From Escherichia coli (GTDB lineage: Bacteria > Pseudomonadota > Gammaproteobacteria > Enterobacterales > Enterobacteriaceae), in assembly GCF_013315695.1 (NCBI RefSeq), contig NZ_CP054353.1: 64,000 nucleotides of DNA. One strand, 5' to 3'. Each line of letters opens with the position of its first letter. The first letter of the stretch is position 1. The translations under genes and the position numbers were made by a program. Under the pieces are notes generated by a model that was not told where the DNA came from, searched no databases, and worked only from the letters and a program-made list of their open reading frames with translations. This document shows positions 5,018 through 53,045 of this stretch, in pieces.

Positions 5018-5596
5018 TTAGTGTAGAGTCGGTTTTTGTACTTCTGGCGCGGTCGGTTGCGGATGAGTAAAGGTGTCGTGGCATAACAACGCGGCAACAC
5101 GAACGTATTCGATGATCTCTTCAAGCGACATTTCAAGCTCTTCCTGATCTTCGTCTTCGTCGTAGCCCAGCTGCGCGATGTTACGCAGATCGTCGATGGC
5201 TTCACCGGTTTCTCCGGTCACTTTGTCCAGCTTCGGTTGCGTAACGCCAAGACCAAGCAGGAAGTGATTGACCCAACCTGCCAGCGCATCAGCCCGATCG
5301 AAAACGCTGACATCATCGCCATCAGGCAGATAAAGCTGAAAAAGGAAGCCGTCATCCTGCAGGGCATCGCTGGTGGCAGAGTGCATTTTACGCAGTGCCT
5401 GTGCCAGCTCATGACCGAAAGCCATGCCTTCGTTCGTCAGGTCGTGAAGTAGCGGCAGCCATGAGCTGTCATCGTTACCGCCACATATCATCCCACTGAT
5501 TAAACCATGCATCTCAGCAGGGGTCAGACCCGTCCCTTGTTGGTTCAGATACTGGTTCATTTCGTTGTAACCAGGCATTTCGTTCTGTATAGACAT
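5018..5596 (-). CDS. ygfB: UPF0149 family protein YgfB (192 aa)
   Basis: ORF product M(LM)[30 protein letters not shown]...; start taken at MSIQ. Confidence 0.85.
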
Positions 5597-5697
5597 AAGC
5601 ATTCGTCGTCAAAGGGAGGAATATTCATGATATGCTACCACTTTGGGCCCTGGTGGACCAGAAAAGGGCTTGTCTCTTCTCATCAGGGTAGCTATAG

Positions 5698-6093
<396 letters not shown>

Positions 6094-6134
6094 CACTTTT
6101 CGGTTTACTGTGGTAGAGTAACCGTGAAGACAAA

Positions 6135-6318
6135 ATTTCTCTGAGATGTTCGCAAGCGGGCCAGTCCCCTGAGCCGATATTTCATACCACAAGAATGTGG
6201 CGCTCCGCGGTTGGTGAGCATGCTCGGTCCGTCCGAGAAGCCTTAAAACTGCGACGACACATTCACCTTGAACCAAGGGTTCAAGGGTTACAGCCTGCGG
6301 CGGCATCTCGGAGATTCC
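6135..6318 (+). ncRNA. ssrS: 6S RNA
   Basis: Sequence atttctctgagatgttcgcaagcgggccagtcccctgagccgatatttcatacc...ggcatctcggagattccc matches recalled 6S RNA; lies between zapA and fau; 3-prime end approximate. Confidence 0.9.
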
Positions 6319-6392
6319 CTTCTTATCTGGCACCAGCCATGACGCAACTACCAGAACTTCCACTGACATTATCCCGACAAGAAATCCGCAAA

Positions 6393-6941
6393 ATGATTCG
6401 GCAACGTCGTCGTGCGTTAACGCCGGAACAACAGCAGGAAATGGGTCAACAAGCCGCTACCCGGATGATGACTTATCCCCCGGTGGTGATGGCACATACG
6501 GTCGCTGTATTCCTCTCTTTTGATGGCGAACTCGACACCCAGCCACTCATAGAACAACTCTGGCGCGCCGGTAAGCGCGTATATCTTCCAGTTTTGCATC
6601 CCTTTAGTGCCGGTAACTTGCTGTTCCTGAATTACCATCCGCAAAGCGAACTGGTGATGAACAGGTTGAAGATCCATGAGCCAAAACTGGATGTGCGTGA
6701 CGTGCTACCCCTTTCCCGATTAGACGTGTTGATCACACCGCTGGTCGCCTTTGATGAGTACGGCCAGCGCCTGGGAATGGGCGGTGGTTTTTATGATCGG
6801 ACCTTACAAAACTGGCAGCACTATAAAATGCAACCGGTGGGTTATGCGCATGATTGTCAGTTGGTGGAAAAACTCCCCGTTGAAGAGTGGGATATCCCTC
6901 TTCCTGCGGTGGTTACACCGTCGAAAGTCTGGGAGTGGTAA
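6393..6941 (+). CDS. fau: 5-formyltetrahydrofolate cyclo-ligase (182 aa)
   Basis: Internal start MIRQRRRALTPEQQQEMGQQAA... inside longer ORF that overlaps 6S RNA; immediately downstream of ssrS as in the known ssrS-ygfA operon. Confidence 0.85.
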   Translation: MIRQRRRALTPEQQQEMGQQAATRMMTYPPVVMAHTVAVFLSFDGELDTQPLIEQLWRAGKRVYLPVLHPFSAGNLLFLNYHPQSELVMNRLKIHEPKLDVRDVLPLSRLDVLITPLVAFDEYGQRLGMGGGFYDRTLQNWQHYKMQPVGYAHDCQLVEKLPVEEWDIPLPAVVTPSKVWEW

Positions 6942-46071: not shown

Positions 46072-48870
46072 TCAGCTGTAGAGCAGTTCGTAGATATAAA
46101 AATATTCTGCGTCCGATAAACGGATAGCGTAAGCCTCTTCAATCGGCAAAAAGGAGGATTTGATGACGCTAAAGGCACGAGCGTCCAGATCAAGCCGGTT
46201 TTCTAGCGCCATCTGTAACGGTTTGCGGTTAATCACGATACGCTCGACCATGCAGCAGCAGTGGATCAGAAAACGTAGTGTCACCTGGCGGCTCGGTTTC
46301 AGGGAGAGCGTGTTGGTTAAGTGGTTCAGAACGTCCTCGATCTCTTTCAGAATTCGCTGCGGGTTGAGCACCGAAATATGGTTGATGATGCTCTCCATGG
46401 TCAGCGCGCTGATAAAACGCATGGCGCTGCGCTCCATCTCCAGTCGGCGCTCGCTGCTTGAGAGATCCGGCGTCAGCAGGCTGAGCACCAGCTCTGGCCC
46501 TTGCTCGGAAAACAGTTCCTCCAGCGAGATAAACGGTATATCCGGCAGTCCCGGCTGGAAGGTGCCGACGATCCCTGCCAGCCGTTCACTGGCATTAAGC
46601 GCCTGCTGAATACGCTCCAGGCTGCGCACCTCGTTATAGTCGAGAATCACCATACGCGTGTCCTGCGACATCAGCTCGCCAAAGCTCTCCTCCAGCACCT
46701 TTTTGATCTTTTCCGCCGTCCCCATTCCGGTTATACATGAGATAACCAGCACTTTGCCACCGCTCTCTTGCTGCGGCGTGCAGAGCCGACAAGGGATATT
46801 TTTACTCTGCATAAGCACAGCCAATTGCGATAGATCGCCAGTTTCGTAGCTTAAATCCAGCCCCACCTCCAGCAGGCTGGTCAGAGTGATATTTGGCAAC
46901 AACAGAACGTCAATCTGGAACAGCTTGCTGATGGTGCTGCCAAAATGGACCAGCGATCCGATATCCACCATCAGTATCAGCCGCTGCCAGCACCGGTCCT
47001 GAATCATCCGGGTCAGGGTTTCCAGGGTGTCATGCACCGACTGCTCAAATGGCATATCAATTGCGTAGAACAGATCGCGCTCCAGCACCCGATTCACATA
47101 TTGCGCCTGGCTCGTTGCGGTGGTCGCACCGTGAGCGATTAGAATCACGCCGCAATCCGGGCTGGTGTCGATGCGCTGGCGGTAGTGGCGACACTCTTTC
47201 AGGAACAGGCACAGCCAGACCACCTCCGTCGCCGGGCACTGAATATGCAACAACTCATTGATTTTGCGGCACAGAAGTGTCGCATTGTCATACTCATCTT
47301 TACAGCGATCCAGAATCAGGCTGGATGAATAGAGTTGAGGTATAAGCCCTCGCCGCACATAGCCAATCAGCGCAAGAAAGTGTTTACGTAACGGGTTCGC
47401 CAGGTTTTCTGGCAATGTAAATCCTAATACCTGCTCCACGTAACCGATCAGCAGCGTCACACGCTCCTCAATTTGATCGCCATAGCGCGGTGGATGCGCC
47501 GCACTATGGCGGCTATAAAGACCATATTCAAAAATCGAACTGAGTTTGTTTTTCAGGATAGCCAGCGTTTCTGCGGGCGGCACGTTACTGTTGCGCAGAT
47601 TGACATATTCACGAGTCAGGAAACTGTAAAACAGGTCGCTCTCTTCTATTTCCGCGCTGGTCGCCAACGAATTTTTTAACGCGGGCAACGTACGCGCATC
47701 CACGTTCAGACGATCTTTACCACCAAACAACGCATCGACCAGCAGACGCTGCTCTGGCGTGGTATTAAACGACATCTCCGCCAGTCGTTTATCTAACTCT
47801 AGCGTATCATTACGCTCGGTCATTCCCGACGCCCACGCCTGCGCGCACAAGAACTGAATATCACTTTTAAGCTGGCCGATATTGCCTTCCAGGGATTTAC
47901 TTAACAACCAATGCAAGAGCGTTTTATCAAGGCTTATGGTACGTTCAATTTTACGACTTTCACGCTGAAAGAAGCTTACAATCAATTCGAGCTGCTCCTC
48001 GACCGAACGCTGGCGAATACCCGGTAAGTCAATACATACCTGGATACGCCGCTGGAAGGTACGCAATAGTGCCGAGTTGACCGACTCTGTAGTGGCGCAA
48101 ATAAGGCGCACCGAAATTGAATATGTTGGCCCACTTGAACCAAGTGGGCGGTATTCACCTTTATCGAGAATAGAAAAGAGCTTCTCTTGTCCTTCGTACG
48201 GGAGGCGATGCACTTCATCCAGAAGTAAATAGCCTCCGTCAGCTTGCTCCACCAATCCCGTTTTATTCTCACTTGCCCCGGTAAATGCCCCCTTATGGTG
48301 ACCAAACAGATGTGAGGAAAGCAACTCCGGATTATGAGCATATTCGGCACAGTTAAAGTAAACCAACGGAGGTAGCGAACCTATGGTGTGCTTGCAAGCG
48401 AAGCAATGCATTAACTCAGCAAAGAATGTTTTGCCAACACCAGATGCCCCGGTTAACAGCACATGTAGTCCGTGGGGATAGAGCACCGCTGCGCGGCCTT
48501 TTTCTACCGCATCACGGAGACTACGGTCGTATCCGATAAGTCCGGAAAACGGATCATCATCTGTATATTTTTCTTTCTTTGGCAATAAACTAGCCACTGA
48601 ATGAACTATGCATTCGCAATCATCCAGTTTTCGATTAATGAGCAATTCTAGTGCGTGACGATGTAGAAAAAAAACAGGACGTCCCTGACTTTTTACCACC
48701 AGGCCTTCATTCCATAATTGATTAAGATCTTTACTAACCGAGTTGCGTGCCAGCCCAAGGTTAAAACCAATCGCCTCAGCAGTAAATGCTTTCTCCTTCG
48801 CTAAATCAGACAGTTCCAGCCCATACGTCAGCCGCTCCAGCTCCTTGTGAATAACATCAATCCGTCTCAT
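46072..48870 (-). CDS. Sigma-54-dependent LevR/DgaR-like activator with AAA+ and PRD/EIIA-type regulatory domains (about 932 aa)
   Basis: Walker A GASGVGKT, GAFTGA motif (HHKGAFTGAS); first ATG (MRRIDVIHKE...) chosen, GTG 14 codons upstream also possible. Confidence 0.85.
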   Translation of the reverse strand: MRRIDVIHKELERLTYGLELSDLAKEKAFTAEAIGFNLGLARNSVSKDLNQLWNEGLVVKSQGRPVFFLHRHALELLINRKLDDCECIVHSVASLLPKKEKYTDDDPFSGLIGYDRSLRDAVEKGRAAVLYPHGLHVLLTGASGVGKTFFAELMHCFACKHTIGSLPPLVYFNCAEYAHNPELLSSHLFGHHKGAFTGASENKTGLVEQADGGYLLLDEVHRLPYEGQEKLFSILDKGEYRPLGSSGPTYSISVRLICATTESVNSALLRTFQRRIQVCIDLPGIRQRSVEEQLELIVSFFQRESRKIERTISLDKTLLHWLLSKSLEGNIGQLKSDIQFLCAQAWASGMTERNDTLELDKRLAEMSFNTTPEQRLLVDALFGGKDRLNVDARTLPALKNSLATSAEIEESDLFYSFLTREYVNLRNSNVPPAETLAILKNKLSSIFEYGLYSRHSAAHPPRYGDQIEERVTLLIGYVEQVLGFTLPENLANPLRKHFLALIGYVRRGLIPQLYSSSLILDRCKDEYDNATLLCRKINELLHIQCPATEVVWLCLFLKECRHYRQRIDTSPDCGVILIAHGATTATSQAQYVNRVLERDLFYAIDMPFEQSVHDTLETLTRMIQDRCWQRLILMVDIGSLVHFGSTISKLFQIDVLLLPNITLTSLLEVGLDLSYETGDLSQLAVLMQSKNIPCRLCTPQQESGGKVLVISCITGMGTAEKIKKVLEESFGELMSQDTRMVILDYNEVRSLERIQQALNASERLAGIVGTFQPGLPDIPFISLEELFSEQGPELVLSLLTPDLSSSERRLEMERSAMRFISALTMESIINHISVLNPQRILKEIEDVLNHLTNTLSLKPSRQVTLRFLIHCCCMVERIVINRKPLQMALENRLDLDARAFSVIKSSFLPIEEAYAIRLSDAEYFYIYELLYS

Positions 48871-49087
48871 TTCTTTACCGCTTAAAAAACAATAGTTGTT
48901 CAGAACATACACTATTTGTAAACGTAAGAATGAGAACTACCGGGAAGAATTAATGTTCCTTGTGGCAATCTGGTTTCTGAATATTCGTGTTTTAAATATT
49001 ACTTATGGTCTGAAACAACCAGGCAGGTGAACAGAGCTAAGAAAAAGTCGCGTAGAAATATAAAAACATATATCGCACTGATGAATG

Positions 49088-49116
49088 TTTCCCGGCATGA
49101 CATACACACCGGGAAA
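49088..49116 (-). terminator. Hairpin downstream of speB (possible terminator, weak U-tract)
   Basis: tttcccgg catgacatacaca ccgggaaa inverted repeat just past speB stop. Confidence 0.3.
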
Positions 49117-49127
49117 TATTTAGTAAA

Positions 49128-50048
49128 TTACTCGCCCTTTTTCGCCGCCTGAATATACAGCATTTCCAGCGCCAGCGTCGCCGCAGCCAGAGCGGTGATT
49201 TCCGACTGATCGTATGCCGGAGCCACTTCCACTACGTCCATCCCAACAATGTTGAGATCTTTCAGGCCGCGTACCAGTTTAATAGCGCGATCGGAGGTCA
49301 GGCCGCCAATTACTGGCGTACCGGTTCCCGGCGCGAAAGCAGGATCCAGGCAGTCGATATCAAAGGTCAGGTAAACCGGCATATCACCTACAATCTGTTT
49401 CACCTGAGCGATAACGTCATCCACGCTGCGATCGTTCACCTGGCAGGCGTCCAGCACGGTAAAACCGTTGTCTTTATCAAACTCGGTACGAATACCAATC
49501 TGCACGGAATGATTCGGGTCGATCAGACCTTCTTTCGGCGCGGTATAGAACATGGTGCCGTGGTCAAATTCACAACCGTTCGCATAGGTGTCGGTGTGGG
49601 CGTCAAAGTGTACCAGCGCCATTTTGCCGAAATGCTTCGCATGAGCACGCAGCAGCGGCAGCGTAACAAAGTGGTCACCACCGAAGGAGAGCATACGCTT
49701 ACCGGCAGCCAGCAGCTTCTCGGCGTGCGCCTGCAGCTTCTCGCTCATCTCACGGGCATCGCCGAAGGCATATACCAGATCGCCGCAGTCCACGACGTTC
49801 AGGCGCTCACGCATGTCGAAATTCCACGGGAAGCGATTGTGTTCCCAGGCCAGATTCGTCGAAACCTGACGGATCGCTGCCGGACCGTGGCGACCACCCG
49901 CACGACCAGAAGTGGCCATATCGAACGGCACGCCAGTAATCACCCAGTCAGCATCGCTGTCATATGGCTGGAAGTTCATCGGCAGGCGTAAAAAACCAAA
50001 GGCGTTGGAAACCAGTGAGTTATCGTATTGATGACCTAAGGTGCTCAT
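49128..50048 (-). CDS. speB: Agmatinase (306 aa)
   Basis: ORF product [45 protein letters not shown]... Confidence 0.97.
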
Positions 50049-50069
50049 GGATGGACTCCTATTACAAAG

Positions 50070-50115
50070 TCGATATAAAAAAACCCTTCCGCGTCGTTAG
50101 GCCCGACGAGGAAGG
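50070..50115 (-). terminator. Intrinsic terminator downstream of the lipoprotein gene
   Basis: Hairpin cccttccgcgtcg ttaggc ccgacgaggaaggg preceded on plus strand by A7 (U7 on minus transcript). Confidence 0.55.
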
Positions 50116-50183
50116 GTTGGATTTGCGAAACACAAGTTTGCGCTAATTATCGCCTTAAATGGACGAGGCATCAAGCGAGGTTG

Positions 50184-50915
50184 CTATTTCCGACACGGTG
50201 GCGGCGCATAGCCATTGTTGTCCGCCGGAAAGGCTTGTCCAGAGCACGGCGGCAGCGCGTTTTGCGCCGGGCCTTGTAATTCAAAGGCGGCAAAGCCGAT
50301 TACACCGGTATTACGCACATCGCCTTGCGCCGAATTGGCTGCGTAGGAATCAGCAACGTTGGCGAACTGAAAAGCCGCTTCGGTATGTTTATCTTTGCGG
50401 AATCCTTTAATCGCTAACGAATCTCCGGCATTCACAATATAGCCGTTGTTATTCAGCGAACCTTGCTTGCCGTTCAGCACATCCAGGCCATCAACCGTAG
50501 CAACGATCTCGTAGTTGGTATTACGACTGTAATTGCGGACATATAATTGATAATTCATTCCTACTCTGGCATGGACAATATAGCGTGGTTCATTATTGGA
50601 TGAATCATAAACCCGCGTAATAGGTAGAGAATTAAAATTACCATCGCGAATAGCATATTCCAGTTCGTTAATACGAATGCTATAAACGCGGTCGTAGCCC
50701 GAAGGAACAGTAGTCGAATAACTAATAACGATCATCTCTGCCGGATCGCGCCAGGCTCGCTCAGCAGATACGCCCTGAACCGATGAGTGCACATCCCCAC
50801 CCCAGGCGGTGCCGACATTGCCCGATGTACTGCTATTATACTGCGCATTACTGGAACAACCGGCCAGCAGCACGGCTAATGCTATCAACGCGCTACGTAC
50901 TTTCCATTTTTTCAT
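50184..50915 (-). CDS. Lipoprotein of unknown function (243 aa) between speB and speA
   Basis: Signal peptide plus lipobox MKKWKVRSALIALAVLLAGCSS; no family recognised by eye. Confidence 0.7.
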   Translation of the reverse strand: MKKWKVRSALIALAVLLAGCSSNAQYNSSTSGNVGTAWGGDVHSSVQGVSAERAWRDPAEMIVISYSTTVPSGYDRVYSIRINELEYAIRDGNFNSLPITRVYDSSNNEPRYIVHARVGMNYQLYVRNYSRNTNYEIVATVDGLDVLNGKQGSLNNNGYIVNAGDSLAIKGFRKDKHTEAAFQFANVADSYAANSAQGDVRNTGVIGFAAFELQGPAQNALPPCSGQAFPADNNGYAPPPCRK

Positions 50916-51000
50916 AACCGTTCCCTCTGCATTTAATTAATGCAGCGATTGTAGGGGGATTATTTAATAAGAAAAGCAGCTAAATTATTTTTAAGAATAT

Positions 51001-51043
51001 ATAAAAAGAAAGCGGGCCGATTTACGTAAATAAATCGACCCGC
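51001..51043 (-). terminator. Intrinsic terminator of speA
   Basis: Hairpin gcgggccgatttacgtaaataaatcgacccgc with flanking A-rich run on plus strand. Confidence 0.5.
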
Positions 51044-51060
51044 CAGCGGAATAATCTTAA

Positions 51061-53037
51061 TTATTCATCTTCAAGATAGGTATAACCGTACAAACCTGCC
51101 TCGAACTCTTCAAGGAACTGTTGTTGCAGTTCAGCATCAAGATCGGTTTTCTTCACTTGATCACGGAACTGGGTTAACAACGTTTTCGGATCGAGCTGTA
51201 CATATTGCAGCATATCCGCCACGGTATCGCCTTCGTCAGACAGTTCTACTTCTACGCTGCCGTCAGGGAAGACGAACACGTCAACCGCTTCGGTATCACC
51301 GAACAGGTTGTGCATGTTGCCGAGGATCTCCTGATATGCGCCGACCATGAAGAAACCGAGCATCGGCGGATTCTCTGGATCGTACTCCGGCATTGGCATT
51401 GTCGTGGCAATACCATCACCATCAATATAGTGATCAATAGCACCGTCAGAGTCACAGGTAATATCCAGCAGCACAGCGCGGCGTTCCGGCACTTGATCCA
51501 ACCCTTCCAGCGGCAGAACCGGGAACAACTGGTCGATCCCCCACGCATCCGGCATCGACTGGAACAGCGAGAAGTTGACGTACATTTTGTCCGCCATACG
51601 TTCCTGCAGCTCGTCGATAATCGGACGATGAGCACGGTTTTGCGGATCCAGCTGCTTTTGCACTTCATGGCACATGCTCAAATAAAGCTGCTCAGCCCAT
51701 GCGCGTTCTTGCAGGCTAAAGGTGCCGGAAGAGTAGCCGATATGAATATCGTGCAGATCCATCTGGCTGTCGTGTAACCATTCACGCAGAGAACGGCGAG
51801 TTCCCGGTTCGTGCATCTCCTGCCAGGTTTCCCACATGCTTTGCAGGGCGCGCGGTGCGTCTTCTGCAGGCGCGGTCGGCACCGTGTATTCGTTACGTTC
51901 CACGCCGATGATATTCGACACCAGCACGGTGTGATGCGCAGTCACCGCACGACCCGACTCGGTGATTACCGTCGGATGTGGCAGACCATTTTCTTCACAC
52001 GCATCACCAATCGCCCAGATGATGTTGTTGGCGTATTCATTGAGGCCGTAGTTCACCGAACAGTCGGACTGCGAACGGGTGCCTTCATAGTCCACGCCCA
52101 GACCGCCGCCGACGTCGAAGCACTGAATATTGACGCCCAGCTTGTGCAGCTCAACATAGAAACGCGCGGATTCACGAACGCCTGTCGCGATATCGCGAAT
52201 ATTCGCCATCTGCGAACCGAGGTGGAAGTGCAGCAGTTGCAGGCTGTCGAGACGCCCGGCTTCACGCAGCGTTTCAACCAGTTGCAGTACCTGAGTCGCC
52301 GCCAGGCCAAACTTCGATTTTTCCCCGCCGGAGGACTGCCATTTACCCGAGCCCTGCGAAGCCAGACGTGCACGCACGCCCAGACGAGGAACGACATTCA
52401 GACGTTCTGCTTCATCCAGCACAATGGCAATTTCTGACATCTTCTCAATGACCAGATAGACCTTGTGGCCCATCTTCTCGCCAATTAATGCCAGGCGGAT
52501 ATATTCGCGGTCCTTATAACCGTTGCAGACGATGACGCTACGGGTCATGCCAGCATGTGCCAGCACTGCCATCAACTCCGCTTTGGAACCGGCTTCCAGA
52601 CCCAGCGGTTCGCCCGAATGAATCAGGGACTCAATCACGCGACGGTGCTGGTTAACTTTGATCGGATAAACAAGGAAGTAATCGCCGTTATAGCCGTAGG
52701 ATTCCCGCGCACGTTTGAACGCGGCGTTAATGGAACGCAAACGGTGCTGCAGGATCTGTGGGAAACAGAACAGTGCAGGCAGACGCTGACCCTGTGCTTC
52801 GCGAGTTTTCACTAACTGCGCGAGATCGACGCGAGCTTCCGGGACGTCCGGGTCCGGGCACACGCTAATGTGGCCCAGCTCGTTAACGTCATAGTAGTTA
52901 TTGCCCCACCAGGCAATATTGTAAGTACGCAGCATCTTGCTGGCTTCCTGGGAGCTCATTGCAACCTCCTGCATGGAGCGTAGTACACCGTGTTCGCCCG
53001 CTGACGAAGGCAAACCCATAGACATGTCGTCAGACAT
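51061..53037 (-). CDS. speA: Biosynthetic arginine decarboxylase (658 aa)
   Basis: Internal start [45 protein letters not shown]... Confidence 0.97.
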
Positions 53038-53045
53038 AGCGAACC

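Follow-up and report, generated by a model that had tools for sequence, protein, structure and literature searches.

The closest described counterparts of the protein considered here are the stand-alone, Lol-sorted outer-membrane lipoproteins of the Enterobacteriaceae, of which YfeY, YbaY and LpoB are examples. In the Enterobacteriaceae, Lol sorting follows an established rule, by which Asp at position +2 acts as a signal for retention in the inner membrane. Two other groups of envelope proteins invite comparison. The Braun lipoprotein Lpp is attached to the peptidoglycan through its C-terminal Lys, and many immunity proteins are stand-alone lipoproteins with a beta-sandwich fold.

In the Escherichia coli genome studied here, a gene for a lipoprotein lies between speA and speB. 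The first-pass annotation of the window (the whole stretch of 64,000 nucleotides that was analysed, whose coordinates are used throughout) described this gene as inserted between two genes that are adjacent in K-12. The position of the gene, on the same strand as its neighbours, and the adjacency of speA and speB in K-12 were both correctly recognized. The insertion is not borne out. The gene-bearing order turns out to be widespread in the Enterobacteriaceae, so that the direction of the event is reversed. We consider it probable that this is a vertically inherited, dispensable accessory gene and not an insertion, and that its product is a binding lipoprotein.

The lipoprotein, its family and its predicted fold

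The ORF occupies positions 50184-50915 (minus strand), runs from ATG to TAG and encodes a lipoprotein precursor of 243 aa belonging to an uncharacterised family. It is flanked on the same strand by speB (49128-50048) and speA (51061-53037). The translated protein begins with MKKWKVRSALIALAVLLAGC and its C-terminus reads PPCSGQAFPADNNGYAPPPCRK. The signal peptide, encoded at 50856-50915 (minus strand), consists of a basic n-region, MKKWKVR, and a hydrophobic stretch, SALIALAVLLAG, and leads into a lipobox L-A-G-C in which the Cys is residue 20 and is followed by Ser at +2. The translation agrees with the lipobox LLAGC read by the first-pass annotation, and also with the Cys/Pro-rich C-terminus that it noticed: the tail contains two Cys and its final residues are LPPCSGQAFPADNNGYAPPPCRK. 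In RefSeq and other public records the protein is named only 'hypothetical protein', 'lipoprotein', 'outer membrane lipoprotein' or 'membrane protein', and a literature search, of incomplete coverage, found no published study of the gene.

The family is large. A phmmer search of 1.84 billion cluster representatives (50% identity clusters) gave 2911 matches with E values of at most 1e-3, of which 883 reached 1e-10, and 290 homologs were word-indexed. Members occur in gamma-, beta- and alphaproteobacteria, and structural matches at 26-30% identity extend the range to Myxococcota. One homolog, 63% identical and clearly of the enterobacterial type, comes from a record labelled Chryseobacterium sp. 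18061 (L021); it probably reflects contamination or mislabelling of that assembly. Among the 104 aligned members, 93 have a lipobox, and Cys20 is conserved in at least 90%. Residue +2 is S, A or T throughout the family and never Asp, and on this basis the lipoprotein is predicted to be located in the outer membrane. Six residues are invariant (Y122, G143, G171, R173, F182 and G204). Nearly so are W38, R53, N128, E136, D142, D145, Y159, Y191, N202 and a tail motif, AFP...YAPPP.

The protein could not be assigned to a family by eye, and database searches led to the same result. Pfam-A produced no match either for the query, even at E 10, or for 127 homologs scanned singly (the 104 aligned members and 23 longer ones). 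The longer homologs contain no extra Pfam domains and thus offer no clue from fusions. NCBIfam matches were confined to the signal peptide (the one to ActS, at E 0.003, spans just residues 2-45), and PADLOC and PHROGs likewise contained nothing matching the family beyond the signal peptide. A sequence profile search of PDB returned no match to the lipoprotein.

An AlphaFold2 model built on the 104-sequence alignment (mean pLDDT 91, pTM 0.80) is all-beta. It shows a signal helix (residues 3-18) and a low-confidence tether at about 21-32; residues 33-213 contain some 14 beta strands, and the tail is of lower confidence. A comparison of the N-terminal with the C-terminal half was negative for internal duplication (hhalign probability 0.4%). 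Foldseek against AFDB50 found family members only. In a fold search of a sample of AFDB the closest proteins were uncharacterised, including fungal DUF7918, and a fold search of PDB returned generic sandwiches only, headed by the MATH domains of USP7, SPOP and TRAF and by a de novo Ig domain.

Taken together, the sequence features suggest the following for the protein. After export through Sec, it would receive its lipid at Cys20 and be passed on by Lol to the outer membrane, where a flexible tether of about 12 residues would carry the compact all-beta body (33-213) and the Pro-rich tail AFP...YAPPP. In enteric members this tail is probably stapled by a disulfide between Cys219 and Cys241. A non-enzymatic binding module is suggested by the conserved polar and aromatic residues Y122, N128, E136, D142, D145, Y159, R173, Y191 and N202 together with the beta-sandwich fold, as well as by the lack of a Cys/His/Ser catalytic signature and of a conserved partner gene. 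The ligand of such a module would be either exogenous or a conserved component of the envelope, and the module might be useful in some niches and expendable in others. From these features, and from strong purifying selection on a gene that is nevertheless lost time and again, our best guess is a binding protein that is anchored in the outer membrane and dispensable. It is just as conceivable that the conserved acidic residues mark an enzyme or a metal site.

Gene neighbourhoods outside the Enterobacteriaceae vary, and clustering of ORFs from 80 loci revealed no recurrent partner outside lineage-specific housekeeping flanks. The gene order is metB-metJ-[gene]-priA in Providencia, yggS-uppP-thioesterase-[two tandem paralogs]-dnaE in Acinetobacter and hisG-hisD-[gene]-small secreted protein-hisC in Variovorax; the homolog adjoins mltG in Neisseria and recO in Gilliamella. 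The tandem paralogs of Acinetobacter are often followed by a small secreted protein of 132 aa (L057, L058, L078, L083 and L087, at about 5200-6800). In Variovorax (L008:6001-7881 and L009:6001-7171) the small secreted protein has a faint match to Rap1a in Pfam and L008 also encodes a SUFU-like protein, so that non-biosynthetic genes are lodged in the core his operon.

These two Variovorax neighbours, the faintly Rap1a-like and the SUFU-like protein, are the only hint of an immunity-type role, and they bear on the first of the alternatives to be weighed. The lipoprotein might be an orphan periplasmic immunity protein or inhibitor that counters either a host enzyme or a toxin arriving from outside as a type VI or contact-dependent effector. 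Besides the genes wedged into the his operon of Variovorax, the tandem paralogs of Acinetobacter, the patchy distribution of the gene and its recurrent loss would fit this idea. It is opposed by a sequence that is too conserved for such a role, and by the neighbourhoods themselves: no T6SS or CDI effector was found beside the homologs in the 80 loci. Moreover, the lipoprotein has no similarity, in sequence or in fold, to any known immunity family. We therefore regard the immunity explanation as rather unlikely, although it fares better than the other alternatives, and continue to favour a binding lipoprotein.

Transcription signals and the relation to speA and speB

Directly past the speA stop, at 51001-51044 (minus strand), there is an intrinsic-terminator-like hairpin with a stem of 15 pairs (51011-51044) and a T-run next to it. 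Folding of 51000-51060 gave -23.4 kcal/mol (z -4.54), and 0 of 200 shuffles were as good. The stem of this speA terminator is kept across genera through compensatory changes, and the hairpin is missing in K-12. A second hairpin, an inverted repeat with a T-run, precedes speB at 50075-50118 (minus strand); its stem (50082-50118) is followed by T7, the fold of 50060-50125 has -24.5 kcal/mol (z -4.85), and again none of 200 shuffles did as well. Its stem also shows compensatory changes between genera.

The first-pass annotation had the gene bracketed by hairpins at 50070-50115 and 51001-51043. Both hairpins are real and fold better than shuffled sequence, but the speB-side one is not specific to the lipoprotein gene, since an identical hairpin is found between speA and speB in K-12. 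It is proposed to be the terminator of the upstream gene, a leader structure of speB, or both.

Upstream of the lipoprotein gene, a reading of the sequence located a -10-like hexamer, TACAAT, at 50948-50953 (minus strand), about 35-45 nt before the start codon; ahead of it the sequence is AT-rich and the -35 is poor. It reads TACAAT in Escherichia and Salmonella and TACTAT, TACACT or TAAGCT elsewhere, and the position of the TA...T hexamer is constant in Escherichia, Salmonella, Citrobacter, Klebsiella, Phytobacter and Kosakonia. The hexamer was not called by a consensus promoter scan, and that the gene has its own promoter there is something we only infer. Between this hexamer and the gene lies a perfect 7-bp inverted repeat, CTGCATT-AATTA-AATGCAG (50927-50945, minus strand), which abuts the ribosome-binding site of the lipoprotein gene on its upstream side. 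Its fold has -11.6 kcal/mol (z -2.0), and its conservation is confined to Escherichia. It might serve as an operator or form a hairpin in the 5'-UTR.

On the other side of the gene, between its stop codon and the speB-side hairpin, the consensus scan called a promoter-like element, TTGATG-17-GATAAT (50146-50174, minus strand), which is probably the promoter of speB. A multi-species alignment from the lipoprotein stop to speB shows a conserved block, CTTGA(N17)GATAAT, followed by the hairpin and the ribosome-binding site of speB. The block is kept in Escherichia, Citrobacter and Klebsiella, in the 60-bp spacer of K-12 and in gene-less Citrobacter-like contigs. In the window, the stretch 50075-50174 (minus strand) leads from the promoter-like block over about 25 nt to the strong hairpin with its T-run, and the speB ribosome-binding site comes next. 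As the promoter would read straight into a terminator-like hairpin, the arrangement looks like a leader or attenuator of speB. A search of Rfam gave no match within 48900-53900.

According to these signals the lipoprotein gene would be transcribed independently: TACAAT lies upstream, a terminator-like hairpin stands on either side, and the unit would end at the hairpin that is common to K-12. For speB a separate promoter would be used. Whether or not the lipoprotein gene is there would then matter little for the expression of speB, because speB has a putative promoter of its own and is preceded by the same block and hairpin either way. That speB is not beside speA at all in Salmonella points in the same direction. 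For the same reason, namely that the promoter-like element and hairpin before speB are alike with or without the gene, the effect on the biology of speA and speB as a whole is probably small.

The placement beside speA could reflect a functional link to polyamine metabolism. For example, the lipoprotein might sense or bind agmatine or putrescine in the envelope and be regulated together with speA and speB. Its placement between these genes is invariant in gene-carrying Enterobacteriaceae (in Salmonella it is after speA), and the conserved acidic patch of D142, D145 and E136 could bind polyamine cations. Three observations argue against the link. First, it is kept within the Enterobacteriaceae only: the gene contexts in Providencia, Proteus, Acinetobacter, Neisseria, Variovorax and Gilliamella are unrelated to the spe genes. 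Second, the terminator-like hairpins part the gene from both neighbours. Third, a third of E. coli genomes are without the gene and yet have speA and speB. A role in polyamine metabolism is accordingly improbable, and a binding module for an envelope component or an external ligand remains the preferred reading.

Insertion versus loss

The lipoprotein gene is found directly after speA in at least nine enterobacterial genera: Escherichia, Salmonella, Citrobacter, Kluyvera, Klebsiella, Intestinirhabdus, Phytobacter, Kosakonia and Entomohabitans. The full order metK-speA-[gene]-speB is seen in cryptic-clade isolates of Escherichia sp., in E. whittamii, in several Citrobacter species and in Kluyvera, as well as in Klebsiella (K. 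aerogenes and K. spallanzanii), Intestinirhabdus, Phytobacter, Kosakonia and Entomohabitans. In E. albertii the gene is followed by speB; the end of the contig cuts the gene copy, and speA falls outside the contig. In Salmonella the gene lies directly 3' of speA and another island separates it from speB. E. fergusonii also carries the gene.

Protein identity to the window copy is 94-95% in other Escherichia, 75% in Salmonella, 72% in Citrobacter and 58% in Kosakonia, and the length stays at 240-245 aa across genera. When orthologs are compared pairwise with the window copy, dN/dS lies at 0.07-0.18; outside Escherichia, dS is saturated. The tracking of taxonomic distance by identity, the low dN/dS and the saturated dS together indicate vertical inheritance under purifying selection. 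On the evidence of these sequence comparisons the gene is real and protein-coding, and it was present in the speA-speB spacer of the common ancestor of many Enterobacteriaceae.

The competing explanation, implied by the word 'inserted' in the first-pass annotation, is a horizontally acquired islet that entered an ancestral speAB operon in the lineage of this strain. It has in its favour the absence of the gene from K-12 and a difference in composition: the gene has 49% GC (GC3 48%) compared with 55% (GC3 62%) for speA plus speB, and the spacer upstream of it has 34.5% GC. Low GC is the sole island-like trait of the gene. At the window copy there are no flanking repeats beyond the terminator T-runs, and no IS, integrase, tRNA or mobility gene. 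An islet of this lineage is also at odds with the presence of the gene at this very place in at least nine genera, with identity that follows species distance, and with dS saturated against Salmonella and Citrobacter, as vertical descent expects. Finally, the gene-less state in E. coli is a single, near-clonal haplotype. An islet is thus very unlikely. The shared synteny, the falloff of identity and the lack of mobility marks argue instead that the K-12 arrangement is the derived state, produced by loss.

The gene-bearing form is present in 3550 of 5426 complete E. coli genomes (at least 80% coverage, 97-100% identity), including O157:H7 and O169:H41. The K-12 junction was found at full length in 1865 of the same genomes, always with at least 99.7% identity, so that this gene-less form amounts to one nearly invariant haplotype; K-12, B strains and derivatives of BL21(DE3) have it. 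The two forms cover nearly all of the 5426 genomes.

K-12 J53 has a spacer of only 137 bp between speA and speB, and no gene is annotated in it. Only 77 bases of the window interval, 50049-50125, are common to K-12, and these include the speB-side hairpin. The remaining segment of 935 bp (50126-51060, no strand assigned) is replaced by 60 bp in genomes of the K-12 type. This 60-bp spacer aligns to the promoter-like block 3' of the lipoprotein stop (in a restricted test, 9 of 1000 shuffles reached the score of the local alignment). It follows that K-12 is without the speA terminator, the upstream region of the gene and its CDS; what it retains is the hairpin together with the putative promoter of speB. 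These comparisons use local and multi-species alignments, as global alignment with cheap gaps scattered the spacer meaninglessly.

The K-12 spacer (L001:3078-3137) differs from window positions 50126-50183 at about a third of positions (~35%), whereas the speA and speB flanks show only 2-3 differences per 100 nt, the same as between O157 and the window. A simple recent deletion is insufficient to explain this difference. The promoter block of the K-12 spacer looks nearer to the Klebsiella and Citrobacter versions. These comparisons suggest that the gene-less allele is old, or that it was imported from another enterobacterium.

Gene-less alleles are also found outside E. coli. In a pattern scan, Citrobacter-like metagenome contigs (L095-L102) were found to have speA and speB about 140 bp apart, in the order speA stop, about 20 nt, promoter-like block, hairpin and speB. 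Their SpeA is 95-98% and their SpeB 98% identical to the E. coli proteins. Other Citrobacter genomes (L016-L018) carry the gene, and the polymorphism therefore extends beyond E. coli. The occurrence of the same clean outline in these contigs shows that loss is recurrent. The gene has been lost repeatedly, each loss removing the speA terminator, the upstream region and the CDS and sparing the promoter-like element and the hairpin before speB; one such loss gave the single gene-less haplotype that is shared by K-12, by B and by roughly one in three sequenced E. coli.

Several gene-bearing strains show other kinds of damage. MS 21-1 (L092:12868-13789) has an IS1 in the spacer that separates speA from the gene; apart from this, its gene copy matches that of the window with 100% identity. 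In 23CRST038 (L093:3136-4322) the gene copy is truncated by IS1; actS and tRNA-Gly stand downstream in place of speA, which indicates a rearrangement. In Shigella dysenteriae the protein occurs as fragments, a further case of decay. The IS1 hits, truncations and fragments are signs of dispensability.

The other side of speB is polymorphic as well. Near speB the window contains dagR (46072-48912), a 946-aa ORF for a sigma-54 type PTS regulator, and the cluster region continues to about 38000. The near-identical strain MS 21-1 has the rest of the D-glucosaminate PTS/dgaE/dagF cluster between speB and loiP. In K-12 J53, loiP comes directly after speB, and this is a second presence/absence polymorphism beside the lipoprotein gene.

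Significance and comparison with known systems

With its C-terminal ...CRK the E. coli protein recalls the ...YRK of Lpp, as do some Variovorax homologs with ...RYRK, and this raises the idea of an Lpp-like tether linked covalently to the peptidoglycan through the C-terminal Arg-Lys. Both would be outer-membrane lipoproteins with an Arg-Lys C-terminus in E. coli. The resemblance goes no further: Lpp is a coiled coil of 58 residues, the present protein a beta protein of 223 residues, and a terminal Lys is found in only 12 of 104 members, with close enteric orthologs ending in CRR, CQK or CQR. We consider such a tether highly improbable. A spurious ORF or decaying pseudogene, as the lack of functional annotation anywhere and the IS-disrupted or truncated copies of some strains might suggest, can practically be discounted in view of the low dN/dS, the constant length, the thousands of homologs and the confident model.

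The preferred explanation, a dispensable accessory gene of vertical descent, points to no unusual mechanism. This is an ordinary accessory gene, and its interest lies in the size of the family, its obscurity and the bias introduced by the reference strain. The lipoprotein is encoded in Salmonella, in Citrobacter and in two thirds of the complete genomes of E. coli, and it belongs to a large family with neither a domain model nor a solved structure. K-12 misleads as the reference here, as an apparent extra gene is in fact the ancestral state and it is the laboratory strains that lost it. The gene would be a reasonable target to look up in knock-out or Tn-seq collections. There is also some small chance that it is the founder of a large outer-membrane lipoprotein family with a new envelope role, for example in recognition of a conserved component of the cell wall or outer membrane or in neutralisation of a widespread toxin that acts in the periplasm. 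Such a role would have escaped study because K-12 and B strains have deleted the gene.

Among known folds, the fungal DUF7918 proteins resemble the model, but these eukaryotic proteins are no lipoproteins, their identity to it is only 12-17%, and the lipoprotein does not match the Pfam profile of DUF7918. With MATH/TRAF-like and Ig-like domains the modelled protein has an antiparallel beta-sandwich topology in common. The named lipoprotein families have no relationship to it in sequence or fold, and K-12 is without a copy of the gene. In its general design, the lipoprotein is most like YfeY, YbaY and LpoB: it shares with them the signal peptidase II signal, the lipobox and a +2 residue other than Asp, as well as a short disordered tether, a small globular domain and the probable organization as a single-gene unit with its own terminator.
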